The notes: generated by a model not told the origin, from the sequence alone. A stretch of DNA of 64,000 nucleotides from Amycolatopsis taiwanensis DSM 45107 (GCF_000519205.1 NZ_JAFB01000005.1:37724-101723), one strand, 5' to 3'; counted from the first letter of the stretch, positions 2,695-37,918 are shown. Made by a program: numbers and translations.

Positions 2695-3534
2695 ATGGGC
2701 ACGCCGTTGGGCGATTTCATCCGTGCGAAGCGCGACAGCATTCAGCCAGAGTCGTTCGGGCTGCCCGATCGCCGCCGCCGCCGGTCCCCCGGGCTCCGGC
2801 GATCCGACCTGGCGCAACGTGCTGGGGTCAGCGTCGAATACCTCACCCGCATCGAGCAAGGACGAGACCGCAACCCGTCGTTGGCCGTGGTGAATGCGCT
2901 TGCGGACGCGTTGAGCCTCGATGCGGCCGAGCGCGCTCACCTGCGCCTCCTCGCCAAGATCACCAGCGGAGCCTGCGTCATCGAGCGGCCGCCATCGCCA
3001 CCCAACCGCCAGGTCCGGCCGACCGTGCATGACACCCTCCAACTTCTCGAGCCCGGGGTCGCGTTCCTCACCAACCGTCTCGGAGACCTGCTCGCGTACA
3101 CGAGTGGGTTCGAGTTGGTGATGCGAGGGATCGGCCTGCTCGAGACCGAGCGGCCGAACCTGACGCGCTACGTGTTCACCGAGCCATACGCAAAGACGTT
3201 CTTCGCCGACTGGGACCAGGTGGCCGACGAACAGGCCTTCGACCTGTGGCGCGGGCCGTCCGTGGCGCAATTCCAGCAGCTCGTGGCCGAACTCGCCCAC
3301 GTCGCCGGAACGGAGCTCACCCGGAGACTCGACCACCACCTACCGCCACCTCAGGTCCCGCTTCGGCTCAACCACCCCATCGCGCACGAGCTTCGGTGGC
3401 AACGAGAACGGCTGGAGCTGCCGGTAACCGACGCGCAGGAACTGGTCGTTCTCCTACCCGCCGACGAGGCGACGGCGCTGGCCATGGATCGGCTGCGGCG
3501 CCAACCCCACCACACCCTGCGCGCGGTCCCTTGA
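2695..3534 (+). CDS. XRE-family HTH regulator with MmyB-like C-terminal domain
   Basis: The N-terminal HTH is LRRSDLAQRAGVSVEYLTRIEQGRDRNPS. The long C-terminal domain is typical of MmyB-like regulators. It is divergent from the FMN reductase. Confidence 0.8.
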   Translation: MGTPLGDFIRAKRDSIQPESFGLPDRRRRRSPGLRRSDLAQRAGVSVEYLTRIEQGRDRNPSLAVVNALADALSLDAAERAHLRLLAKITSGACVIERPPSPPNRQVRPTVHDTLQLLEPGVAFLTNRLGDLLAYTSGFELVMRGIGLLETERPNLTRYVFTEPYAKTFFADWDQVADEQAFDLWRGPSVAQFQQLVAELAHVAGTELTRRLDHHLPPPQVPLRLNHPIAHELRWQRERLELPVTDAQELVVLLPADEATALAMDRLRRQPHHTLRAVP

Positions 3535-3607: not shown

Positions 3608-4048
3608 CTAGGCCGCGCCGCCTGGGAGGAGTGTTCGCAGCAGGTCACGTAGGTTTTCTTGCTGGGCCGGGGTGAGCGGGGTCAGCGGGGATCGCGTGCC
3701 GAGGTGGTGCAGTGCTTCGCCGCGGCGGCGTTGGCCGGCCGGGGTGAGCACGATCTGTTTGGCGCGGCGGTCGGTGGGGTGTGGTCGGCGTTGGATCAGG
3801 CCTTGTTCTTCGAGCCGGTCCAGGATGAACGTGGCGTTGGAGGCTTCGCAGGACATCCGGGTGGCGAGCTCCCGTGCGGTGATCGGTTCGGACAGTTCGC
3901 GCAGCGCGATGACCTGACTGGGGGTCAGGCCCAGCTGCTCGGCCACTCGGCGCACCTGCACGTCGAGCGTGTGTGCGAGGTGGTGGACCAGCTTGCACAC
4001 GTCTCGGTCGATCTCGCTGCCCGTTGGTATCGCTGAGTCCTGCGCCAT
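3608..4048 (-). CDS. MarR-family transcriptional regulator
   Basis: LTPSQVIALRELSE..PITARELATRM....ATFILDRLEEQGLIQRRPHPTDRRAKQIVLTPAG is a canonical MarR wHTH. Confidence 0.85.
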   Translation of the reverse strand: MAQDSAIPTGSEIDRDVCKLVHHLAHTLDVQVRRVAEQLGLTPSQVIALRELSEPITARELATRMSCEASNATFILDRLEEQGLIQRRPHPTDRRAKQIVLTPAGQRRRGEALHHLGTRSPLTPLTPAQQENLRDLLRTLLPGGAA

Positions 4049-7117: not shown

Positions 7118-7303
7118 TCAGCCGGTTGCCGGCCAGAGCAGGGCTTGGGCCACGATGACCTGCGCACCGTTGAAGATCAGGGCTGGACTTCCATGTGGAC
7201 GGTAGCCCAACTCGATCGCTTCGCTGACACGTCGGCAAAACGTTTCGTCGTCTGGTCCGGTCAGTACGCGGTAGATCGGGAGGCCATCCGGCGGTGTGCT
7301 CAC
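7118..7303 (-). CDS. DUF1737-like small protein
   Basis: The 61-aa sequence IYRVLTGPDDETFCRRVSEAIELGYRPHGSPA matches the DUF1737 pattern recalled from memory. Confidence 0.5.
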   Translation of the reverse strand: MSTPPDGLPIYRVLTGPDDETFCRRVSEAIELGYRPHGSPALIFNGAQVIVAQALLWPATG

Positions 7304-25188: not shown

Positions 25189-25719
25189 TCACTCTTTCCC
25201 GGCGTTGTCCGGTGTCAGTCCGGCGACGAGGTTGAAGGCGCCGGTGAGGAGGTTGAGCGCGACGATGCCGACGACGTCGGCGATTTCTCGATCGCTGTAG
25301 CCGTGCTCGCGCAAGGCCGCGATCTGCTGGTCGGTGATGGAGGTCGGCTCGCGGTAGACCCGGAGTCCGAGATCGATGGCGGCCGCGATCGCCGGATCGG
25401 CCGAAGTGCCCTCGCGGGCGCGGGCGATCTCGTCGTCGTCCACCCCGAGGCCACGCGCCGCCGCGATGTGCGCTTCGAGGCACAAGCCGCATCCCTGCTG
25501 GACCTGGACCGCGATGGAGAGCCGTTCGCTGATCTTGCGGTTCAGCTTGGCTCGTTTCATTGCCCGGCTGAGCTGGAGATAGCCGCCGAGGACGGCCGGT
25601 GAATGGGCCATGGTGGCGACCATGTCGCCGACCTGGCCGTGCCGGGACACGAGTTCGCCCAAGAGGTCGCGCGACGCGCCGACCGCGGTGTCCGGAGTGA
25701 GTCGGGTGAGTCGGGGCAT
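25189..25719 (-). CDS. carboxymuconolactone decarboxylase (AhpD-like) family protein
   Basis: The 176-aa protein carries the CxxxH-like motif QQGCGLCLEAH. The ORF-track extension to 26253 is rejected. Confidence 0.8.
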   Translation of the reverse strand: MPRLTRLTPDTAVGASRDLLGELVSRHGQVGDMVATMAHSPAVLGGYLQLSRAMKRAKLNRKISERLSIAVQVQQGCGLCLEAHIAAARGLGVDDDEIARAREGTSADPAIAAAIDLGLRVYREPTSITDQQIAALREHGYSDREIADVVGIVALNLLTGAFNLVAGLTPDNAGKE

Positions 25720-26075: not shown

Positions 26076-26294
26076 ATGCGAGTGCAGGTCGATCTCGATC
26101 GATGCGAGGCCAACGGTCTGTGCGTCCTGGCGGCACCGGAGGTCTTCGACCTCGACGACAACGACCAACTCCAGTACGACCCCGAGCCCGGCGAGGAATT
26201 GATCCTCGACGTCGAGGACGCTGCTCGCAGTTGCCCCGTGCAGGCCATCGCACTCACCCGTACCGCGGCCGATGGCGGAGAGGTCCCGTCATGA
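26076..26294 (+). CDS. 3Fe-4S ferredoxin
   Basis: The 72-aa protein has CEANGLC...CP, the arrangement seen in P450-type ferredoxins. Confidence 0.8.
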   Translation: MRVQVDLDRCEANGLCVLAAPEVFDLDDNDQLQYDPEPGEELILDVEDAARSCPVQAIALTRTAADGGEVPS

Positions 26295-27646
26295 CGGCCA
26301 ACCGCGCGGGGTTGCACGTCGCGATCGTCGGCGCCTCGTTGGCGGGAGTCCGGGCGGCGGCATCCCTGCGTCAGCTCGGCTTCGAAGGGAGGCTGACACT
26401 CATAGACGCGGAACCAGGCGAGCCTTATGACCGTCCGCCGTTGTCGAAAGGGTTGCTCGCCCAGACACTCGACGACACCGCCGTACGGCTTCGCGACGCG
26501 TCGAAGATCGACGCAACCTGGATCCGAGGACGACGAGCGATCAATGCATCGACGGCCGAGCGGACGCTTGACCTCGACGACGACACGACCGTGGGCTTCG
26601 ACGGGCTGATCATCGCCACCGGGTCACGCCCACGATCCGACCTCCAAGCCTTGGTACCCGGAACTGACGGTCCACCGGCTGAAGTACACGTGTTGCGCAG
26701 CTTGAACGACGCCACCCGACTGCGACGGGCATTGTCGAGGCCTGGCATCCGAGTCGCCGTCATCGGAGCCGGATTCATCGGCACCGAGATCGCCGCCACG
26801 GCACGTCGACTCGGACATGCGGTCAGCCTGATCGACCAGTCCCCGGTTCCACTCCGGAAGGCGGTCGGCCCGACCGTGGGCGGATACGTGGCCGCCCTCC
26901 ACCGTGACCACGGCGTCGACCTGCACCTGGGCACTCAGGTCCGGGCGCTCGACGTGCGGCACAACGGGCGCATCTCCGGCGTCGTCCTCGACGACGACAC
27001 CGTCATCCCCGCCGACCTGGTGGTACTGGGGCTCGGCGCGATCCCGAACGTCGAATGGCTGCACCACAGTGGTGCTCTCCTGGACGACGGGGTACGCACC
27101 GACGCGCAACTCCGCGTTCGCGACATCTCGCACCAGTCGATCCCCGGAATCGTCGCTGCCGGAGACATCGCCCGCTGGCCGCACCCCCTCTTCGATGACG
27201 AACCCGTCCGGCTCGAACACTGGAGCAATGCCGCCGACCACGCGGCGATCGCAGCACGGACGGTGCTGGCGGACCTGGTGGGCGACCGCGCCCCCGAGGT
27301 GTGCGCGAGCGTGCCGTCGTTCTGGTCGGACCAATACGACCGCAAGGTGATGTCGGTCGGCCTCCCTCACCTGGGAGAGGACTCCGCCGTGCTCGACGGG
27401 CGGATCGCAGATGACCGCTTCGTCGTCGGCTTCGGCCGGCGCGGCCGCCTGGTCGGTGCGGTCGGCGTCGGCAGTCCCCGGACTCTCGCAAGGTACCGAC
27501 GACTCATCGCGCGCCAGAGCTCATGGCCGGTCGCTGCGGCGGATCCCGAAACAGGCCCTTCTGCGACGGGACCCATGCCAGGGCCGGCTTCGTCGCCTGC
27601 GAGCGCGTCTGTCGCATCTTGTCTCCCGTCAGGCCATGACCGATAA
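26291..27646 (+). CDS. FAD-dependent ferredoxin reductase (NAD(P)H:ferredoxin oxidoreductase)
   Basis: VAIVGASLAGVRAA is the FAD GxGxxG motif. VIGAGFIGTEIA is the NAD motif. Its ATG overlaps the ferredoxin stop. Confidence 0.85.
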   Translation: MTANRAGLHVAIVGASLAGVRAAASLRQLGFEGRLTLIDAEPGEPYDRPPLSKGLLAQTLDDTAVRLRDASKIDATWIRGRRAINASTAERTLDLDDDTTVGFDGLIIATGSRPRSDLQALVPGTDGPPAEVHVLRSLNDATRLRRALSRPGIRVAVIGAGFIGTEIAATARRLGHAVSLIDQSPVPLRKAVGPTVGGYVAALHRDHGVDLHLGTQVRALDVRHNGRISGVVLDDDTVIPADLVVLGLGAIPNVEWLHHSGALLDDGVRTDAQLRVRDISHQSIPGIVAAGDIARWPHPLFDDEPVRLEHWSNAADHAAIAARTVLADLVGDRAPEVCASVPSFWSDQYDRKVMSVGLPHLGEDSAVLDGRIADDRFVVGFGRRGRLVGAVGVGSPRTLARYRRLIARQSSWPVAAADPETGPSATGPMPGPASSPASASVASCLPSGHDR

Positions 27647-27964
27647 CGGAGGAGCAGAGTCATGAGTGTGCACAATTCGCGTATACGCGCCGGTATCGCC
27701 ACCGCTGCCGGTTCTCCTGTCACTCGCACCATCGTGCGGTGTCTCATCGGGTGTGCCATTACCGCACTCACGGGGCGGATCAGCGCAGCGGAGCGGCCCG
27801 CTTCGAATACCTGCGCTTCGGGGTCTCGCTAGCTTGATCCGGGGAACAGGCGGCCGACCCCGTCAACCCAGAGCCATACTTGTGCCCGTCGCGAGTATCG
27901 AAGTCGGTTGGGGCGGGTTGGGCCGATTTCGGCGTTCTTGCCGGAACCTCGGAACTCGTCACAA

Positions 27965-28270
27965 ACCCAGAACTCACCTCCTTCGCCCCAGAACTCAGCC
28001 ACCCGAACCCAGAACTCGCCCACCTGCACCCAGAATTCAGCCACCTGAACCCAGAACTCGCCCTCCCCAGCCGGGGACACGCCAGCACCTGGCGTGTCCC
28101 CGGTTCAGGCACCCGAGTTCCCGGTTCAGGTGCCTGAGTTCCCGGTTCAGGTGCCTGAGTTCCCGGTTCAGGTGCCTGAGTTCTCGGTTCAGGTGCCTGA
28201 GTTCCCGGTTCAGGTGCCTGAGTTCCCGGTTCGGTCGGGCGTGTCCCCGGTCCAGGCACTTGAGTTCCGG
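27965..28270. repeat. 306-bp imperfect palindrome of 21-bp tandem units: L1-L5 inverted and degenerate, R1-R8 direct, R2/R3/R5/R6 identical, around a perfect 14-bp inverted-repeat centre
   Basis: Seen directly. The unit is ttcaggtgcctgagttcccgg; each unit has an inner TCAGG-TG-CCTGA near-palindrome. The centre is ccggggacacgcca-gcacc-tggcgtgtccccgg (28070-28102). Confidence 0.9.
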
Positions 28271-28526
28271 GTTGGAAACAACAGATTTCGAAGGCGGGAT
28301 TGCCCCGGCAGGACGGCTGCTTCGAAGCGATGGTCGAACGTACGTGGTCGAGTTCGGGAAGAGTCCCGGCCAGCTGTCAAGGCGACGGGCGTTACGCGGT
28401 GTCCAGCGATGCTTGATGTTGGGCGTTATGGGCATTACCGATGTCCACCAACTCGACGGAGTCCCGCCGGCGTACGAGCGAACGCGAGCTCCGATGGCAT
28501 TGTCGCAGTTGGACTAGTCTGGCCTC

Positions 28527-29114
28527 GTGTTATTGGACGCGTTGAGCCCAGAGGCCTACCTTGCCGAGGATGCCGTCATCGACTTCGGTCGACCGGCGGT
28601 ACGACTACTGGCCCACGGGTTGCGCGCACAGCACGACGACGACGTGGAGTTCGCCAAGGCGGCGTTCGAACACGTTCGCGACAACGTTGCGCACTCGTGG
28701 GACGCACAAGATCCCACGGTGTCCATCACCGCGTCGGATACGGCCGTCAACGGTGTCGGCCTCTGCTTCGCCAAGGCACACCTGTTGGCCGCCATCCTCC
28801 GGTCCCAGGGCATCCCCACCGGATTCTGCTACCAGCGCCTGACCGACGATGACCAGTCCTACTTGCTCCACGGCCTCGTCGCCGTGTTCCTGAACGGCGA
28901 CTGGCATCGCCAGGATCCCCGTGGCAACAAGCCTGGCGTCGACGCCCAGTTCTCGATCAAGGAGGAAAGACTGGCCTGGCCGGTTCGCCCCGAACGGGGC
29001 GAGCACGACTACCCGCAGGTCTTCCCCGGCCCCCATCCGACAGTCATCGCCGCCCTGCAGGCGACGGACAACGTCCTCGACCTCTGTCGAGGAGGCCTCC
29101 CCAGCAGCCTCTGA
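28527..29114 (+). CDS. transglutaminase-like superfamily protein (putative cysteine protease)
   Basis: The 195-aa protein has Cys in VNGVGLCFAKAHLLAAILRSQGIP, plus downstream His/Asp, consistent with the TGase-like core. Confidence 0.7.
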   Translation: MLLDALSPEAYLAEDAVIDFGRPAVRLLAHGLRAQHDDDVEFAKAAFEHVRDNVAHSWDAQDPTVSITASDTAVNGVGLCFAKAHLLAAILRSQGIPTGFCYQRLTDDDQSYLLHGLVAVFLNGDWHRQDPRGNKPGVDAQFSIKEERLAWPVRPERGEHDYPQVFPGPHPTVIAALQATDNVLDLCRGGLPSSL

Positions 29115-29205: not shown

Positions 29206-29544
29206 GTGATTTGTCCCAAGTGCCAGAATGTCATGCGGACCGTGGACAAGAACGGTGTGCACATCGAGCAGTGTGACGGGTGCCGTGGCATCTTCCTGGA
29301 CCGCGGTGAGCTGGAGCAGATAGCGGGCGCCGAGCGTGCCTACTACGGGAGCCCACCGCCGTATCGCGGTGAAATGCCGCACTACGGCGACTCACCCCGG
29401 CCGTATCGTGGCGGTCACGGCGACTCCCCTCGGCCGTACCGCGGCGGCTACCGCGACTCGCCCCGCCCGTACTACGACGACTCACCACGTCCATACCAGC
29501 ACGGGCACCGGAAGCGCGGCTTCCTGGAGAACTTGTTCGACTAG
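29206..29544 (+). CDS. TFIIB-type zinc-ribbon protein with C-terminal (DSPRPYRGG)4 repeats
   Basis: CPKCQNVM...CDGCRGIFLDRGELE is a zinc ribbon. Four PRPY repeats are followed by the tail GFLENLFD. The GTG start is at 29206. Confidence 0.7.
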   Translation: MICPKCQNVMRTVDKNGVHIEQCDGCRGIFLDRGELEQIAGAERAYYGSPPPYRGEMPHYGDSPRPYRGGHGDSPRPYRGGYRDSPRPYYDDSPRPYQHGHRKRGFLENLFD

Positions 29545-30402: not shown

Positions 30403-30987
30403 GTGGAGGCGCTTGTGGGCGAGTTCGTCGACGCCGCGTTGTCCTTTCCCGCGGCGATCTTCTCCGTTCTGCTCGCCGTCGTCGTGCTCTACTGGCTGCT
30501 CGTGCTCATCGGCACCCTGGACGTCGAGATCGGCGACCTCCACCTCGGCGACGGCATCGGGCTCGGCGGCGTCCCCATCACGGTCAGCGTGTCGGTGCTG
30601 GCCGCCGTCTCCTGGTTTCTCACCCTCGCGGGCACCGTGTCCATCGCCGGGCTCGCCACGACGCCGCGAACGCTCGTGGGCATCGTCGTGCTGGTCCTGG
30701 CGACCGTCATCGGTCTGCTCGTCGCGCGACTCGTCGCCGTACCGCTGCGCAGGCTCTATGTCACCGGCGGTCAGGCGTTCCGCAGCGACTTCCTCGGCCG
30801 CGAGTGCGTCATCCGCACCGGCACGGTCAGCGGGGACTTCGGCCAGGCCGAAGTCACGGCGGACGACGGGTCCTCCGCGATCATCCAGGTGCGTCAGACC
30901 GGCGAGCACGAGCTGGCCAACGGCCACCGCGCATTGATCTTCGACTACGACATCGACGGTGAGTTCTTCTGGGTCGTGCCTGCCTGA
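30403..30987 (+). CDS. NfeD-like membrane protein (flotillin partner, YqiJ-like)
   Basis: Three TM helices are followed by a C-terminal OB-fold-like soluble domain. The gene sits immediately upstream of flotillin. Confidence 0.65.
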   Translation: MEALVGEFVDAALSFPAAIFSVLLAVVVLYWLLVLIGTLDVEIGDLHLGDGIGLGGVPITVSVSVLAAVSWFLTLAGTVSIAGLATTPRTLVGIVVLVLATVIGLLVARLVAVPLRRLYVTGGQAFRSDFLGRECVIRTGTVSGDFGQAEVTADDGSSAIIQVRQTGEHELANGHRALIFDYDIDGEFFWVVPA

Positions 30988-30998
30988 AAGGTAGATAA

Positions 30999-33002
30999 AT
31001 GGAAGCAATCCTCATTGCCGGCGGCGTGGTGATCGTCGTGCTCCTGCTCATTCTCATCGCCATCAGCCGCCTGTACCGCAAGGTGGAACAGGGGCAGGCA
31101 CTGATCATCAACAAGGTCCGCAGCGCACACGTGACGTTCACCGGCGGGGTGGTACTTCCGGTGCTGCACAAGGCGGAGACCATGGACATCTCCGTCAAGA
31201 CCATCCACATCCAGCGCACCGGCCAGGACGGCCTGATCTGTCAGGACAACATCCGCGCCGACATCCGCATCACGTTCTTCGTGCGGGTCAACAAGACCAG
31301 CGAGGACGTCATCAAGGTCGCGCAGGCCATCGGTACCGAGCGCGCCAGCGACCAGGCCACGATGCAGGCATTGTTCGACGCGAAGTTCTCCGAGGCGCTC
31401 AAGACCGTCGGCAAGCACCTGGACTTCGTGGACCTCTACACCAAGCGCAACGAGTTCCGCGACCGGATTCTCCAGGTCATCGGCACCGACCTCAACGGCT
31501 ACAGCCTCGAAGACGCGGCCATCGACTACCTCGAGCAGACCCCGTTGAACCAGCTCGACGCCAGCAACATCCTTGACGCGCAGGGCATCCGCAAGATCAC
31601 CGAGCTGACGGCGATCGAGCACGTGCGCACCAACGAGTACCAGCGCAACGAGGAGAAGGAGATCACCAAGCAGAACGTGGACGCTCGCGAGGCGATCCTC
31701 GAACTGGAACGCCGCCAGGCCGACGCGGAGAACCGTCAGCGCCGCGAGATCGAGACTATGAAGGCCCGCGAGGAGGCCGAGACCGCGAAGGTGCAGGCCG
31801 AGGAACGGCTCAAGGCACAAGCCGCGCAGCTGCGTACCGACGAGCAGTTGGGCATCCAGGACCAGAACCGGGCCCGCGAGGTCGCCGTCGCCGAGAAGAA
31901 CCGCGAGCGCGTCATCGCCATCGAGACCGAGCGCATCGAGAAGGACCGGATGCTGGAGGTCGTGTCCCGCGAGCGGGAGATCGCCCTTGCCAGCGCGGCC
32001 AAGGACAAGGAGGTCGAGGTCGAGAAGCGCTCGGTCGCCGAGGTGGTCCGCGAGCGCGTCGCCGTCGACAAGACCGTGGCCGAGCAGGAGGAGAACATCA
32101 AGAACCTCCGCGCGGTGCAGGATGCCGAACGCACCCGGCAGGCGATCGTCATCCAGGCGGAGGCCGAGGCGCAGGAGAACCTGGTCAAGGGCATCAAGGC
32201 GGCCGAGGCCGCGGAGGCCGCCGCCAAGCACAAGGCCCGCGAGCAGCTCACGCTCGCCGAGGCCCGGCAGCAGACCGCGGACCTGGAGGCGCGCGCCAAG
32301 ATCCGCTTGGCGGAAGGTATCCAGGCCGAGGTGGCCGCGGCGGGTCTCGCCGAGGTGCAGGTCCGGGAACGCAACGCCGAGGTCCTGCAGAAGGAAGGCG
32401 TTGCCGAGGCGGTCGTCGAGCGGGAGAAGGGCCTGGCGAGGTCGGAGGCCGTGGAGAAGGTCGGCCGCGCGGAAGCCGTCGTGGATCGCGAGAAGGCGCT
32501 GGCCACCGCGGACGCGTTGCGCGAGAAGCTGAAGGGCGAGGCCGAGGGTCTCACCGAGAAGGCCGCCGCCATGGCGGCACTGGACGACGCGTCGCGCGGA
32601 CACGAGGAGTTCCGGCTGCGGCTGGAGCAGGAGAAGGAGGTGCGGCTCGCCGGCATCGCCGCGCAGCGCGAGGTCGCGGAGTCGCAAGCGATGGTCCTCG
32701 CGGCCGGGCTGGAGAAGGCCGACATCGACATCGTCGGCGGCGACAGCGTGTTCTTCGACAAGCTCATGGGCTCGATCTCGCTCGGCAAGAGCGTCGACGG
32801 GTTCGTCGGTAACTCGGAGGTGGCGCAGCGGCTGGGTGGTGCGTGGCTGAACGGCGACGCGAACTTCACCGAGGACCTCAAACAGATCCTCGGCTCGTTG
32901 AGCACCGAGGACCTCAAGAACGTCTCCGTGTCGGCGTTGTTGACCAAGATGATGAAGGACGGGGTGCCTGACTCGCCGGCCGTCATCACGCCGAAGCCGT
33001 GA
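30999..33002 (+). CDS. flotillin-family SPFH/band-7 protein (YqiK-like)
   Basis: An N-terminal TM is followed by an SPFH domain and a long Ala/Glu-rich coiled-coil region of EA repeats. Confidence 0.9.
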   Translation: MEAILIAGGVVIVVLLLILIAISRLYRKVEQGQALIINKVRSAHVTFTGGVVLPVLHKAETMDISVKTIHIQRTGQDGLICQDNIRADIRITFFVRVNKTSEDVIKVAQAIGTERASDQATMQALFDAKFSEALKTVGKHLDFVDLYTKRNEFRDRILQVIGTDLNGYSLEDAAIDYLEQTPLNQLDASNILDAQGIRKITELTAIEHVRTNEYQRNEEKEITKQNVDAREAILELERRQADAENRQRREIETMKAREEAETAKVQAEERLKAQAAQLRTDEQLGIQDQNRAREVAVAEKNRERVIAIETERIEKDRMLEVVSREREIALASAAKDKEVEVEKRSVAEVVRERVAVDKTVAEQEENIKNLRAVQDAERTRQAIVIQAEAEAQENLVKGIKAAEAAEAAAKHKAREQLTLAEARQQTADLEARAKIRLAEGIQAEVAAAGLAEVQVRERNAEVLQKEGVAEAVVEREKGLARSEAVEKVGRAEAVVDREKALATADALREKLKGEAEGLTEKAAAMAALDDASRGHEEFRLRLEQEKEVRLAGIAAQREVAESQAMVLAAGLEKADIDIVGGDSVFFDKLMGSISLGKSVDGFVGNSEVAQRLGGAWLNGDANFTEDLKQILGSLSTEDLKNVSVSALLTKMMKDGVPDSPAVITPKP

Positions 33003-36000
33003 CGTCGACCGTGTCCGCGCCGGCCGAGGAGGCGGCCGGCGCGATTCAGGACGGGCTCGACGCCCGCACGTACGAGGTGCTGCGGCAGCGGCTCGCCGGG
33101 GCGGCGAAGGAACTGGCGCGGCGGGCCGAGGCCCTCAACACCCGCCGCCTGGAGGTGTTCGGCGGCACCGATTTCCGGCTGCTCGGCGGCGAGCGGATCC
33201 GGACCGACAACAACTGCGTGCCGCGCGACATCGTGTCCATTCCGGACAGTGACGGCGGCGCGAGCGGGCTGATGCTGTTCGGCTACAACGTCTTCATCGG
33301 GCTGAAACCCGAGACGACGGTCGACGACGTGTTCTCGCTACACCGGTTCACCCGCGACGGCGAGGCGTTCCGGTTCGAGGACGCGTCGAACGAGCGGCCG
33401 GAGCTGTTGCGGGACGAGCGGTTCCGGCGTGAGTTCACCGAGCTGTACCGGTACTACCGGGAAACCCGGCTCATGCAGTTGCGGCCGGTCGAGGGCAAGC
33501 TGCTCGCGGTGTTCCAGACCGGCCCACGTACCGAGGACATCAAGGTGCTGCGGTGGGTGGCCGGCGCCCACGGCGAACTGTCCTACCTGGACAATGTGGG
33601 CGAGCGGGACCACGTGTTCCCACCCGCGTACGACTTCAGGTGGACCGAGACCACGCGGGACGATCACGTGCTCGGCCGCCACCCGCACATCTCCATCGAG
33701 AACGAGGTGTTCGTCGAGACGATCGGCGGCGACCTGACCGTCAAGATCGAGAACAACACCGAGATCGGCGAGGGCATCTACCGCGAGCCGGTCGACGAGC
33801 CGCTGCAAAGCCTCGCCGACGCGGACGTCCGGTACGCGCGCGTCGGCCCGCTGATTCTGCTGAAGATCCTGCCGTACAACGAAAAGACCCACCGATACCT
33901 GGTCTTCAACACCCGTACCAAGACGGTCGTGCGGCTCGACGGCATCGGCCAGGCCTGCCTGCGGCTGCCCGAGGACCAGGGCATCATCTTCCCCGGCGGC
34001 TACTACCTCGCCACCGGCGTGTCCCGCACGTTCGAGAACACCGATACCGACGACCTGGAGTTCGAGCGGGTCATCCGGTCTCCCAACGGCGAGGACGTGC
34101 TGTACGTCTTCCACGCCCGCCGCGAGGGACGCTCGCTTCTGTTGCCGTACAACGTGATCCGCAAGGAGGTCGCAAGCCCCCTGCCGTGTCACGGGTACTC
34201 GCTGTTCGAGGACGGCACGCTCGTCGCGTTCCGCGCCACGTCGGACGAGCCGACGCGAGTGCACCCGATGCAGGTGTGGCAGACACCGTTCGTGTCGGAC
34301 TCGTTCGCCGCCGCGCAACCCATCGGCACCGGGCCGCTCGAACGTGTCGGCAACGCGGACCTCGTGCGTGGCATCTCCGACTGTCTTTCCGTGACCCGGA
34401 TGGTCGACGAGATGACGCCGTCGACGGCCGTGTTCGAGGGCCTGATCGCCGCGTGTGCCAGGGCGTTCGACAGCTACCACTGGCTGGGTGAGCCGGACCT
34501 CGGCGACCTGCGGGGTGCGCTCACCGACGTCCGCGCGACGGCCGAGCAGGTGCTGGCCGAGTTCGAGAACGTCAAGGCACTCACCGACTCCGCGGCCGCC
34601 GAGCTGACCAGGACCGGTGAGGACATCGCGTCCCTGGTGCGGCGGGTGCGGGGCGAGGTGCCGGGTTCCGCGGACGAGTGGGTCGAGCAGCTCACGTCGC
34701 TGCGGAAGGCACAGGGCCGCCTCGAAACGCTGCGCGAACTGCGGTACGTGGACACGGCACGGATCGACGAGCTGGCCGCCACCCTACAGTCCGAACTGGA
34801 CAGTGCTGCCCAGCGAGCGGTCGAGTTCCTCCAGGGCGAGGACGCGTTCACCGGCTACCACGAGAAGGTCGAGGCGCTCGCCACGGCGGCAGCCGCCATC
34901 AAGACCGTGGCCGAGGCCGCGCCGGTCGTCGAGCGGCTGGCCGAGCAGGCCGGCGGACTGGAGATCATCACCGAGATCGTCGGCTCGCTGGACATCGGCG
35001 ACGCGACCGTACGCACGAAGATCCTCGAACGGGTCGGCGAGGTGCTGGCCCGCGTCAACCGTGCACGGGCCACTGCGGACGCCCGGCGGCGCGACCTCCT
35101 TGCCACGGAAGGCCGTGCGGCGTTCGCGGCCGAGTTCGCCCTGCTGGGCCAGTCGATCACGGGTGCGCTCGCGGTCGCCGAAACGCCGCGCAAGTGCGAC
35201 GAGCAACTGGGCCGGCTGCTGCTGCAGCTGGAGAATCTGGAGTCCCGGTTCGGCGAGTTCGACGACTTCCTCGCCGAACTGACGGCCAAGCGCACCGACG
35301 TCTACGAGGCGTTCTCGTCCCGCAAGCAGGCGCTGGTCGATGAGCAGGCACGGCGTGCGGACCGGCTGTTCGAGTCCGCTGACCGGATTCTCACGAGCAT
35401 CAGCCGGCGCGCGGCGTCCTTGTCCACTATGGACGAGATCAACACGTACTTCGCGTCCGACCCGATGGTCGCGAAGGTTCGGTCGGTTGCGAACGACCTG
35501 CGTACCCTCGACGACGCGGTCCGCGCCGAGGAGTTGGACGGACGGCTGAAGACGGCCCGTCAGGAGGCCGGCCGCTCGCTGCGGGACCGCGTGGACCTCT
35601 TCGGTGACGGTGGCGAGACCGTTCGCCTCGGCCGGCACCGGTTCGCGGTCAACACGCAGGCCATCGACCTGACGCTGGTCCCGAAGGACGGCGAGATGGC
35701 GTTGGCCATCACCGGAACCGACTTCCGCACGCCCGTGCAGGATCCCGGGTTCCAGGGCACGAAGCCGTTCTGGGACCAGCTACTCGTGTCCGAGACCGCG
35801 GATGTCTACCGCGCCGAGTACCTGGCCACCTCCGTGCTCGCGGACGGTTCAGCCGACGGGGCTGGTGACGCCGCGGACATACTCGACATCGTGCGCCGCG
35901 CGGCCGAGTCCCGGTACGACGAGGGCTACGAGCGGGGTGTGCATGACCACGACGCGGCGGCCATCCTCGAGGCGCTGCTGCGGTTGCGGTCGAGCGCGGG

Positions 36001-37918
36001 CCTGCTGCGCTATCCGGCAGCGGCACGCGCATCGGCCCAGTTCTTCTGGGCGCACGGGACGACCGACGAGGCGCGCACGGTGTGGTCGACGCGTGCCGGT
36101 TCGCTGGCCAGGGCACGGGAAGCGTTCGGACCAGTACCGGCGATCAGCGAGCTGTGCGCGGAACTGGCCACGGCCATCGACGAGTTCGGCCTGGCCACCG
36201 GCGATTCGGCCCTGGCCGCGGAGTACCTGTTCGAGGAGTTGGGCTCGACCCCGCTCGGTTTCGTGACCAGTGCCGGCGCCCCCGCGCTCGTCGAGAGGTT
36301 CCGGCGTGCGCTGGACGGCCGTCGCGAGTTCGACGACGACCTCCGCGCACTCGAGGATCTGAACGCCAGGCACCAGCTCGCGACCGCGTGGCTGTCGGCG
36401 TTCGTGTCCACACAGGACGACCTGGTGGCCGACGAGCTACCCGAAGCGGTGGCGTTGCTGCTGTGCGAGCTGCCCAGGCACGACTCGTCGGCGGCCGTGT
36501 CGGCCACGGTCGAAGGTTTGCTGGGCGCCCACCCCCGCGTGGTGGAGGGCCGCATGACCGTCCGGCTGGACGAAGTCCTGACCAGGACCCGCAAGTTCCG
36601 GCTCGAGCGCGTGCCGGCGTTCCGCGCGTACCAGAAGCAACGCAACGAGTTGCTCACCCGCGAGCGTGCCCGGCTGCGGCTCGATGAGTTCACGCCGAAG
36701 GTCATGAGCACGTTCGTGCGCAACAAGCTGCTCGACGAGGTGTACCTGCCGCTGATCGGCGACAACCTGGCCAAGCAGCTCGGTGCGGCCGGCGACGCCA
36801 AGCGCACCGACCAGATGGGCCTGCTGCTGCTCATCTCCCCACCGGGCTACGGCAAGACGACGCTGATGGAATACGTCGCGAACCGGCTCGGCCTGGTGTT
36901 CGTCAAGGTCAACGGCCCGGCACTGGGCCACGACGTGACGTCGCTCGACCCGGCGGACGCGCCGACGGCGACCGCGCGCCAGGAGGTCGAGAAGATCTCC
37001 TTCGCGCTCGAACTGGGCAACAACGTGTTGCTCTACCTGGACGACATCCAGCACACGTCACCGGAACTGTTGCAGAAGTTCATCTCCCTCTGCGACGCCC
37101 AGCGGCGCATGGAAGGCGTGTGGGACGGCCGGACCAGGACCTACGACCTGCGTGGCAAGCGCTTCGCGGTGTGCATGGCCGGCAACCCCTACACCGAGGC
37201 CGGCAAGCGCTTCCGCATCCCGGACATGCTGGCCAACCGTGCCGACGTGTGGAACCTCGGCGACGTGCTCTCCGGCCGCGAGGACGAGTTCGCGTTGAGT
37301 TACCTGGAGAACGCGCTGACGTCCAACCCGGTCCTGGCTCCACTGTCCACAAGGGATCGTGCGGATCTCGAGCTGCTGATCCGGTTGGCCCGTGGCGAGG
37401 AGGTCCAGTCGGACCAGCTGTCGCACCCGTACTCCGCCGTCGAGTTGGACCAGCTCACGTCCGTGCTGCGCAAGCTGTTGCGGGTCCAGGAGGTCGTCCT
37501 CGCCAACAACCAGGCGTACATCGCATCGGCGGCGCAGGCGGACTCGTCGCGTACCGAGCCGCCGTTTTTGCTCCAGGGCTCGTACCGGAACATGAACAAG
37601 CTGGCAGAGCGCATTGTCCCGGCAATGAACGATCAGGAACTGGAAGCCACGATCGACGACCATTATCTTGGTGAGGCGCAGACGCTGACGTCCGGCGCGG
37701 AGGCGAACCTGCTGAAACTCGCTGAACTTCGTGGTCGGCTCACCAAGGGAAAGGCCGAACGCTGGGCGACGGTCAAGGCGGCGTATTTACGGGACAAGGC
37801 GTTGGGCGGCACGGAGGACGATCCGTTGAGCCGCGCGGTCGGCGCCGTCGGTCTGCTCGCGGACCGCGTCGCGGCCGTGGAAAAGGCCATCGTCCGAGCG
37901 AGCGAACGTCGCGGTTAG
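32999..37918 (+). CDS. 1639-aa flotillin-associated protein with C-terminal MoxR/AAA_5-type ATPase
   Basis: Walker A is LLLISPPGYGKTTL, Walker B is VLLYLDDIQH, and the sensor is AVCMAGNPYTE...RIPDMLANRADVW. The N-terminal about 1200 aa have no motif I can recognise. The start overlaps the flotillin stop. Confidence 0.85.
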   Translation: MTSTVSAPAEEAAGAIQDGLDARTYEVLRQRLAGAAKELARRAEALNTRRLEVFGGTDFRLLGGERIRTDNNCVPRDIVSIPDSDGGASGLMLFGYNVFIGLKPETTVDDVFSLHRFTRDGEAFRFEDASNERPELLRDERFRREFTELYRYYRETRLMQLRPVEGKLLAVFQTGPRTEDIKVLRWVAGAHGELSYLDNVGERDHVFPPAYDFRWTETTRDDHVLGRHPHISIENEVFVETIGGDLTVKIENNTEIGEGIYREPVDEPLQSLADADVRYARVGPLILLKILPYNEKTHRYLVFNTRTKTVVRLDGIGQACLRLPEDQGIIFPGGYYLATGVSRTFENTDTDDLEFERVIRSPNGEDVLYVFHARREGRSLLLPYNVIRKEVASPLPCHGYSLFEDGTLVAFRATSDEPTRVHPMQVWQTPFVSDSFAAAQPIGTGPLERVGNADLVRGISDCLSVTRMVDEMTPSTAVFEGLIAACARAFDSYHWLGEPDLGDLRGALTDVRATAEQVLAEFENVKALTDSAAAELTRTGEDIASLVRRVRGEVPGSADEWVEQLTSLRKAQGRLETLRELRYVDTARIDELAATLQSELDSAAQRAVEFLQGEDAFTGYHEKVEALATAAAAIKTVAEAAPVVERLAEQAGGLEIITEIVGSLDIGDATVRTKILERVGEVLARVNRARATADARRRDLLATEGRAAFAAEFALLGQSITGALAVAETPRKCDEQLGRLLLQLENLESRFGEFDDFLAELTAKRTDVYEAFSSRKQALVDEQARRADRLFESADRILTSISRRAASLSTMDEINTYFASDPMVAKVRSVANDLRTLDDAVRAEELDGRLKTARQEAGRSLRDRVDLFGDGGETVRLGRHRFAVNTQAIDLTLVPKDGEMALAITGTDFRTPVQDPGFQGTKPFWDQLLVSETADVYRAEYLATSVLADGSADGAGDAADILDIVRRAAESRYDEGYERGVHDHDAAAILEALLRLRSSAGLLRYPAAARASAQFFWAHGTTDEARTVWSTRAGSLARAREAFGPVPAISELCAELATAIDEFGLATGDSALAAEYLFEELGSTPLGFVTSAGAPALVERFRRALDGRREFDDDLRALEDLNARHQLATAWLSAFVSTQDDLVADELPEAVALLLCELPRHDSSAAVSATVEGLLGAHPRVVEGRMTVRLDEVLTRTRKFRLERVPAFRAYQKQRNELLTRERARLRLDEFTPKVMSTFVRNKLLDEVYLPLIGDNLAKQLGAAGDAKRTDQMGLLLLISPPGYGKTTLMEYVANRLGLVFVKVNGPALGHDVTSLDPADAPTATARQEVEKISFALELGNNVLLYLDDIQHTSPELLQKFISLCDAQRRMEGVWDGRTRTYDLRGKRFAVCMAGNPYTEAGKRFRIPDMLANRADVWNLGDVLSGREDEFALSYLENALTSNPVLAPLSTRDRADLELLIRLARGEEVQSDQLSHPYSAVELDQLTSVLRKLLRVQEVVLANNQAYIASAAQADSSRTEPPFLLQGSYRNMNKLAERIVPAMNDQELEATIDDHYLGEAQTLTSGAEANLLKLAELRGRLTKGKAERWATVKAAYLRDKALGGTEDDPLSRAVGAVGLLADRVAAVEKAIVRASERRG

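Follow-up and report, generated by a model that had tools for sequence, protein, structure and literature searches.

The sequence analysed here, hereafter the window, is a 64,000-nt stretch from Amycolatopsis taiwanensis DSM 45107, and all coordinates refer to positions within it. An 880-bp gap (27647-28526) separates a ferredoxin reductase gene from a co-directional cluster that includes genes for a flotillin-like protein and an ATPase, and it contains a palindromic array of 21-bp units (27947-28271), made up of five to six degenerate left units, a central stem-loop and eight right units facing the opposite way. The array was compared with the corresponding region of a second A. taiwanensis strain (L001, GCA_030269425.1; two assemblies in all), which is collinear with the window at ~99% identity and was aligned to it with MAFFT. 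Our preferred explanation, in which we have moderate confidence, is that the array is a non-coding, fast-changing palindromic minisatellite formed around a strong hairpin between two gene clusters, and that it is not a dedicated control site. The difference of seven units and the homogenization of units between the two strains point to minisatellite instability.

Architecture and coding potential of the array

Each unit consists of 21 bp (3 x 7 bp), in which two heptamers contain GAAC and the third has diverged, and the true period is 21. Tandem Repeats Finder (TRF) detected 21-bp arrays in both arms, at 28099-28232 in the right one (score 240; 6.4 copies with 95% matches) and at 27964-28059 in the left one (4.6 copies with 77% matches). 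The 21-mer TTCAGGTGCCTGAGTTCCCGG is present in four exact copies (28125, 28146, 28188 and 28209), with a one-mismatch copy at 28167 and a three-mismatch copy at 28104; within the 64 kb its matches are confined to the array, and shuffled sequences give an expectation of 0. The two arms are inverted with respect to each other (122 nt, 74% complementary, 3-nt separation), the units on both sides point away from the central stem-loop, and the whole palindrome extends over ~27944-28273 if a sixth left unit is counted. The seventh right unit (R7) belongs to a second unit type (type B) and carries GGCGTGTCCCC, a copy of the right half of the central stem.

The initial annotation of this DNA had described a long imperfect palindrome of 21-bp units, and this description was borne out by TRF, the inverted-repeat search and the exact-match counts, as were the perfect 14-bp inverted repeat around gcacc, by inspection of the sequence, and the identity of units R2, R3, R5 and R6, by the exact 21-mer matches. 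The proposed total of thirteen units held for the five inverted and eight direct ones, but a sixth, more degenerate left unit (27947-27965) had been missed. Units R1, R4, R7 and R8 do differ from the consensus, as had been stated, but R7 represents the second unit type rather than an older variant. The 5-N2-5 near-palindrome TCAGG-TG-CCTGA is likewise present in the unit, but it folds no better than shuffled sequences and is not in phase in the related arrays described below.

Folded as single-stranded DNA, the region 27940-28290 reached -97.5 kcal/mol, versus -55.0 +/- 3.6 kcal/mol for shuffled sequences (z = -11.8). As RNA, the segment 28062-28112, which contains the central stem-loop, reached -37.4 kcal/mol for the + strand (z = -7.0) and -38.6 kcal/mol for the - strand (z = -5.7). 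A lone unit folded at only -3.2 kcal/mol (z = -0.1), and so lacks the self-folding character of the repetitive extragenic palindromic (REP) sequences and bacterial interspersed mosaic elements (BIMEs); two neighbouring units paired well (-18.9 kcal/mol, z = -3.5). The perfect 14-bp stem provides the GC-rich stem-loop of an intrinsic terminator. On the + strand the central stem runs on into UUCAGG, on the - strand into CUGGGG; neither strand has a U-tract there, and a terminator scan of 27400-28700 returned no terminator-like site. The hairpin lies 425 nt, and the array 318 nt, past the annotated stop codon of the reductase gene.

The array had been judged non-coding and, in the absence of spacers, distinct from a CRISPR array, and our results agree on both counts. 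The periodicity in GC content at third codon positions (GC3), clear in the flanking genes, was absent across 27560-28520 except for the composition of the repeat itself, and no Pfam match was obtained for the open reading frames (ORFs) crossing the array. The start-to-start spacing of the units equals the unit length of 21, leaving no spacers; head-to-tail 21-bp units (8 + 5-6) at a non-coding site are, in turn, features of a minisatellite. It is very improbable that the SRFRCLS, PEFPVQV or NRELRHL frame is a real gene encoding a heptad repeat. Several frames are open through the array, and one hypothetical protein is annotated over it in each strain, but the two strains disagree in the frame and strand that were annotated, there is no GC3 signal outside the repeat and no Pfam match, and both arms would need to encode the same heptad on opposite strands. 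A translated-repeat search with a profile of the SRFR frame gave an unrelated heptamer palindrome as its sole match, and the 289 heptad ORFs collected as apparent homologues in an all-against-all protein search proved to be translations of unrelated 21-bp arrays, this unit occurring only in the window's own ORF. The profile of the NREL frame matched only the peptides P0275, P0276 and P0278. A search of Rfam 15 gave no match at the gathering score, with two sub-threshold matches to microRNA models attributable to the hairpin, and BLAST searches of plasmids and phages with the window array and with one of the metagenomic arrays described below found nothing relevant. Several known regulator boxes were also considered (LexA GAAC-N4-GTTC, DosR, HAIR, the extracytoplasmic function (ECF) sigma factor motif GGAAC..GTT, the TraB recognition sequence (TRS) GACCCGGA, and Noc), and none of them fits the unit.

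Strain differences and gene context

In L001 all the flanking genes are kept, as are the left arm, the central stem-loop and one unit of the right arm, but a block of exactly seven units is missing. The end-points of this difference lie in R0/R1 and R7/R8, which form 42-bp direct repeats with ~80% identity, and either a single recombination or slippage event removed the block in L001 or the block expanded in the window strain. The left arm shows five to six further differences; four of them, of which the last two are adjacent, turn L3 and L4 into identical units in L001, a pattern that appears to indicate conversion or turnover, i.e. concerted evolution, rather than independent point mutations. 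The left arm differs from its L001 counterpart at 3.5-4.2% of sites, a value close to those for the left (2.8%) and right (3.3%) parts of the gap, whereas the reductase and transglutaminase-like genes flanking the gap differ at only 0.7% and 0.5% of sites, respectively. Constraint on the units is therefore no greater than on the adjoining non-coding DNA, and within the array the stem-loop alone is unchanged between the two strains, with no differences over its 33 nt. The initial annotation had proposed comparing unit numbers between strains and had regarded absence of the array from a relative with the same downstream cluster as the mark of a probable hypervariable minisatellite; the comparison gave a whole-unit difference of seven, with seven of the eight right-arm units absent from L001. 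Iterons and centromeres would be expected to keep their number and sequence among relatives carrying the system, and this difference departs from that pattern.

Two independent Logan short-read assemblies of the window strain (SRR3947916 and SRR29904086; L002 and L003) were 100% identical to the window, and both end at 28241, within R7. No repeated 31-mer in the window sequence accounts for this break, which could result from poor read-through of the palindrome or from length heterogeneity in the culture. Elsewhere in the alignment, the perfect tandem of the 9-bp unit GTGAGTCGG at 25696-25715 (2.1 copies in the window) is longer in L001 by one copy, added at 25696, and 20 bp are inserted in L001 after 29596, between the genes for the Zn-ribbon protein and the kinase.

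A ferredoxin gene precedes the reductase gene upstream of the array. Downstream, the transglutaminase-like gene that opens the cluster is followed by genes for a Zn-ribbon protein, a P-loop kinase, a membrane protein, a flotillin-like protein and a DUF3686 AAA ATPase, and the cluster ends at 37918. The last three genes (30403-37918) encode a membrane protein without a Pfam match, a 667-aa coiled-coil flotillin-like protein, also without a Pfam match, and a 1639-aa protein with DUF3686, DUF7902 and AAA ATPase domains. An identity as a defence system was considered for this cluster and rejected, PADLOC having given only a weak match to IetA (E = 7e-4). The Zn-ribbon (TFIIB-type) gene contains an in-frame 33-bp tandem repeat at 29384-29472 (2.7 copies, 82% matches), which encodes repeats of the ..DSPRPYRGG.. 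type. The protein encoded by the transglutaminase-like gene shares 99% identity with an A. taiwanensis protein. The gene has other neighbourhoods in other genera and is therefore not a fixed part of the flotillin cluster. No replication, partition (ParA/ParB/Rep) or regulator gene adjoins the array, as judged from the neighbouring genes and Pfam, and no IS200/IS605-like gene was seen beside it.

The sequence GGACTAGTCT-NN-CCTCGTG, which abuts the start of the transglutaminase-like gene (28510-28529), does not vary between the window, L001 and L118 (90-110), whereas the sequence immediately 5' to it diverges. L118 is a relative with an 87% identical transglutaminase-like protein, for which only 107 bp of upstream sequence are available. 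A -10-like element ending 6 nt before the start codon has the geometry of an actinobacterial leaderless promoter, and we infer that the conserved motif is a candidate gene-proximal leaderless promoter, located 245 bp beyond the array (Table 1). The gap does lie directly upstream of the co-directional cluster, as originally described, but the suggestion that the array occupies the position of the promoter and operator is not supported, given the distance between the array and this motif.

Table 1. Positions of the array components, neighbouring genes and candidate promoter in the window
Feature	Position	Strand	Basis
Ferredoxin reductase gene (Pyr_redox_2, Reductase_C), upstream neighbour	26291-27646	+	Annotation, Pfam
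L0, outermost and most degenerate left unit (cctcggaactcgtcacaaa, 1-2 bases short)	27947-27965	-	Phase-aligned display; pairs with R8 in the DNA fold
Left arm, five 21-bp units, degenerate and opposed to the right arm (read as CCCAGAACTCAGCCACCTGAA on the + strand)	27966-28070	-	TRF, repeat search, anchor pattern
Central perfect stem-loop, 14-bp stem ccggggacacgcca / tggcgtgtccccgg, loop gcacc, from two type B (GGGGACACGCC) half-units	28071-28103		Sequence, RNA fold
Right-arm units R1-R6 (TTCAGGTGCCTGAGTTCCCGG); R2 = R3 = R5 = R6, R4 with 1 mismatch, R1 with 3 mismatches	28104-28229	+	TRF, repeat search
Segment of 147 bp (exactly 7 units) missing from L001	28106-28252		MAFFT alignment
R7, unit of type B (TTCGGTCGGGCGTGTCCCCGG) repeating the right-hand half of the central stem	28230-28250	+	Phase-aligned display
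R8, outermost right unit (TCCAGGCACTTGAGTTCCGGG), R1-like	28251-28271	+	Repeat search, phase-aligned display
Candidate leaderless promoter: -10-like TAGTCT (28515-28520), 6 nt, GTG start (28527)	28515-28529	+	Conservation in three genomes
Transglutaminase-like gene, downstream neighbour, first of the co-directional cluster	28527-29114	+	Annotation, Pfam

Related arrays in other genomes

A genome collection was scanned with a three-unit anchor (CCNNGAAYTC at a 21-nt period), which returned at least 93 loci, nearly all of them unrelated 7- or 21-bp repeats; no Amycolatopsis record was present among the matches listed. The metagenome-assembled genome (MAG) MFD04212.bin.1.66, from an uncultured member of the Actinomycetota (long-read, GC ~0.7), contains 21-bp arrays at no fewer than six loci on different contigs (L010, L038, L040, L055, L064 and L067, on contigs CAWGVZ0100000xx). 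Two unit types are common to these arrays and the window: an A unit (..GAACC-NN-GAACTC..), represented by GCGAACTCGGGTGCGGGAACC in the MAG and GGGAACTCGGGTGCCTGAACC in the window, and a B unit (GGGGACAYGC), represented by GGGGACATGCGGTCGGGAACC and GGGGACACGCCCGACCGAACC, respectively. The B units are placed at the ends of arrays or as punctuation within them, and intermediate forms are present in the MAG. Among all the loci fetched, the motif GGGGACAYGS was nearly exclusive to the window and the related arrays. Three of the MAG arrays (L010, L040 and L067) have two inverted arms around a centre of 50-240 nt, but their units point inwards, whereas those of the window point outwards. Five of the six are intergenic and lie at most ~250 nt from a stop codon (three of the arrays at 17-40 nt, and three between convergent genes), and their neighbours are unrelated: Lrp/AsnC, ParA-like, gamma-glutamyltranspeptidase, PNPOx, XdhC, AraC/DJ-1, IS630-type transposase and Hsp70-like genes. 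L040 consists of 12 near-identical units with an inverted arm of four, and L010 has a second array, composed of B units only, ~4 kb from the first (7140-7230).

The metagenome scan yielded only L115 and L116, two contigs of one soil locus, in which three units begin at the TGA stop codon of a gene. A contig from the European Nucleotide Archive (ENA), L119, carries TGAACCGCGAACTTCGCGACT x 6 beside a hairpin, and the metaclust peptide P0276 is a translation of A and B units. The 16 matches in the viral scan all corresponded to a single phage coding sequence (..NRELQRQNRELQ..) and were dismissed as a chance match, leaving no family member among the viral contigs. A nhmmer model built from the MAG units only ranked the window third among ~87 non-MAG loci (among the matches listed); unit similarity alone is therefore modest evidence of a relationship, and the link is based mainly on the shared B unit and architecture. 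These comparisons place the array, as far as sequence can tell, in a loose and sparse set of actinobacterial 21-bp arrays that share the same two unit types and tend to lie at gene 3' ends near strong stem-loops. No description of this 21-bp family was found in a limited full-text literature search.

Arrays of pure heptamers with an analogous layout, inverted on either side of a hairpin or spacer, were also recovered from three unrelated lineages. L114 (ENA contig, 2750-2960, directly after a RecQ-like gene) contains (GGGAAGC)n - hairpin - (GCTTCCC)n and also (GGGATGM)n; L034 (Acidobacteriota MAG, 3235-3440) contains (GTTCAGG)n ... (CCTGAAC)n as inverted pure heptamers, and L072 (Planctomycetota MAG, 3700-3870) an inverted heptamer array, (GTTCCGG)n. 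The first two of the heptamer arrays (GGGAAGC)n/(GGGATGM)n, (GTTCAGG)n and (GTTCCGG)n are of the form G3N4 and could form a G-quadruplex on one strand. This idea was also considered for the window and abandoned: it fits heptamer analogues such as (GGGTTCA)n and not the 21-bp unit. Strong GC-rich stem-loops adjoin not only the window array but also its relatives L040, L067 and L119 and the analogous L114, which suggests that terminator-like hairpins are where such arrays start and expand, probably by slippage or template switching. Two further repeats came to light. L120 (1440-2640), on an ENA contig of low GC content (0.42), has ~55 copies of the 21-bp satellite AATCGGGAACTAGTGTGTCTC, split into many small ORFs, and shares only the GGGAAC motif with the actinobacterial arrays. 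L117 (GCA_021787845.1, 3300-3680) has ~16 units of another intergenic 21-bp repeat, GAGATTCCGGTGGCTCCGGGC, located 76 nt past a glycogen phosphorylase stop codon and annotated as a 241-aa protein; this is another spurious ORF made by a minisatellite.

Alternative explanations and comparison with known repeats

If the array is a minisatellite, its core would be the very stable GC-rich stem-loop at 28071-28103, with units arranged head to tail on each side, and the number and sequence of these units would vary through slipped-strand mispairing, or through unequal recombination or conversion among them. It would have no dedicated operator or iteron role for the flotillin/ATPase cluster. Any physiological effect would most probably be a by-product: read-out transcripts from the ferredoxin and ferredoxin reductase genes, or antisense transcripts, would fold into the central hairpin and an arm-arm duplex, and such folding would halt or stabilise these transcripts and insulate the downstream cluster. 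We infer both the slippage mechanism and this terminator or insulator effect from the features described above. Several observations nevertheless weigh against this explanation. The lack of a U-tract and the distance of 425 nt from the reductase stop codon would weaken a terminator role for the central hairpin. The comparison is between two assemblies, and collapse of the repeat during short-read assembly of L001 could in principle account for the 147-bp difference. The relatives were all found with window-derived patterns, so that their shared positions are partly an ascertainment effect. Finally, the recurrence of the A/B grammar in other Actinomycetota could reflect a sequence-specific partner, which a neutral minisatellite would not predict. 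It is conceivable, though doubtful, that the arrays of the window, the MAG, L115/L116, L119 and P0276 constitute an undescribed interspersed family of the Actinomycetota, functional sites kept by a chromosome-organising or transfer protein that polymerises on the units, or by a mobilising enzyme, rather than by neutral slippage.

A related possibility, which we regard as unlikely, is that the array is a non-autonomous mobile or interspersed element similar to a miniature inverted-repeat transposable element (MITE), REP/BIME or BOX, in which the inverted arrays act as ends for a transposase or recombinase supplied in trans and the element spreads between intergenic sites. Such an element would be consistent with the inverted arms and with the A/B grammar, which one MAG carries at six or more loci whose neighbouring genes are unrelated; one of these arrays lies ~620 bp from the IS630-type transposase gene, and most of them are at gene 3' ends, locations that tolerate REP and MITE elements. 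The arms, with 74% complementarity over 122 nt, are tandem arrays of unequal length to which defined termini could not be assigned. A target-site duplication, however, is not supported: the flanking 7-mer GATTTCG was equalled or beaten in 26% of shuffled sequences, and a longer direct alignment of the flanks was reached in 16%. Furthermore, the inter-arm segments of the MAG arrays, which vary in length over 50-240 nt, have no likeness evident by eye, the arms of the window and the MAG have opposite orientations with respect to the centre, and only one copy was found in the 64-kb window, with no plasmid or phage match and no member in viral contigs.

The initial annotation had likened the array to centromere-like iteron arrays, cooperative repressor arrays or a MITE. 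In a binding-site array of the operator, iteron or centromere kind, each 21-bp unit would be occupied by a dimer on a single face of the helix, with cooperative polymerisation, and the array would control the downstream cluster or organise the DNA locally. The period of 21 bp (two helical turns), the TCAGG-TG-CCTGA sequence in the unit and the position upstream of a co-directional cluster would suit such a binding array, and there is a precedent in Geobacter metallireducens, in which paired tandem hepta- or octanucleotide sites have been read, without experiment, as sites for global regulators (PMC2700814). We nevertheless consider it improbable: a strain that keeps this cluster does without seven of the eight right-arm units, the units of the left arm diverge at a neutral rate, the near-palindrome is out of phase in the related arrays, no par, rep or regulator gene is adjacent, a conserved promoter-like motif lies 245 bp away, and the related arrays are mostly at gene 3' ends and not at promoters. 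The probability is similarly low that the array is a selected RNA element, whether a bidirectional factor-independent terminator, a stabiliser of the 3' untranslated region or a structured RNA without coding function; in any such element the hairpin would be lengthened by the arms, and pairs of units would form serial stem-loops. The very stable hairpin, formed on both strands and unchanged between the strains, the pairing of adjacent units, and the related arrays that begin 0-25 nt past stop codons and adjoin strong stem-loops argue for such an element, but the U-tract, a terminator prediction and an Rfam family are all missing and the array lies 318 nt from the upstream stop codon. In addition, complementarity between the arms is only 74%, and homogenisation of the right arm was accompanied by no corresponding changes in the left one, so that their pairing is not being maintained. 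The palindromic minisatellite thus remains the explanation we favour.

The array has some practical implications. It calls for caution in annotation, as it yields spurious hypothetical proteins in different frames in each strain, and it breaks short-read assemblies. The whole-unit difference between strains makes it a possible variable-number tandem repeat (VNTR) typing locus for A. taiwanensis. If the A/B grammar does reflect a binding or mobilising protein, the arrays would represent a new interspersed family in a phylum with few catalogued ones, and a protein specific for A and B units would provide a handle on the nucleation of tandem arrays around terminator-like hairpins.

The array is of a known kind, that of bacterial intergenic minisatellites and interspersed repeats, but it is unusual in its inverted arrays of two unit types around a hairpin, which recur in a few other Actinomycetota. 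The mycobacterial interspersed repetitive unit (MIRU)-VNTR minisatellites of Mycobacterium tuberculosis, reportedly described by Supply and colleagues in 1997 and 2000, resemble it as actinobacterial intergenic tandem units of tens of bp with strain-variable copy number and no demonstrated function. MIRU units are, however, 40-100 bp long, are oriented with the genes of operons and have no inverted arms around a hairpin, whereas the unit described here has 21 bp (3 x 7) and occurs as two types. BOX elements in Streptococcus pneumoniae and the REP/BIME sequences of enterobacteria are present in hundreds of copies per genome, and REP sequences have a mobilising enzyme, the REP-associated tyrosine transposase (RAYT). 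These are also modular intergenic repeats, with variable tandem modules (boxB) between complementary ends, long hairpins, locations at gene 3' ends and possible effects on neighbouring transcripts, but their high copy number and RAYT have no demonstrated counterpart for the window array, and there is no sequence similarity. Plasmid iterons and parC-type centromeres likewise consist of units repeated head to tail, each about two helical turns long and in some cases divided between two opposed blocks. To our knowledge, these always lie beside rep or par genes and are conserved in number and sequence, whereas the window array has no such neighbour and no conserved unit number or sequence.

The short tandemly repeated repetitive (STRR) sequences of cyanobacteria are heptanucleotide tandem repeats. 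Arrays of the intergenic heptamer TAACTGA have been described in Beggiatoaceae, Cyanobacteria and Bacteroidetes (PMC4679880). The window array shares with these heptamer repeats an intergenic location and a period based on 7 nt, its unit consisting of three heptamers, but STRR and TAACTGA arrays are pure 7-mers, usually in direct orientation only, and those of Beggiatoaceae are often found just upstream of start codons. The class 1-3 sites of G. metallireducens consist of 3-5 tandem repeats of 7-9 nt, paired on opposite strands at a variable distance and present in multiple copies in unrelated contexts, and they have been interpreted, without experiment, as IHF/HU regulator sites and as targets of insertion sequences (PMC2700814). 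These sites resemble the arrays described here in having two inverted short tandem arrays with a variable spacer, in multiple copies. They differ in their shorter and fewer units (7-9 nt and 3-5 per site, versus 21 nt and up to 8-13), belong to another phylum and have no demonstrated sequence relation to the array of A. taiwanensis.

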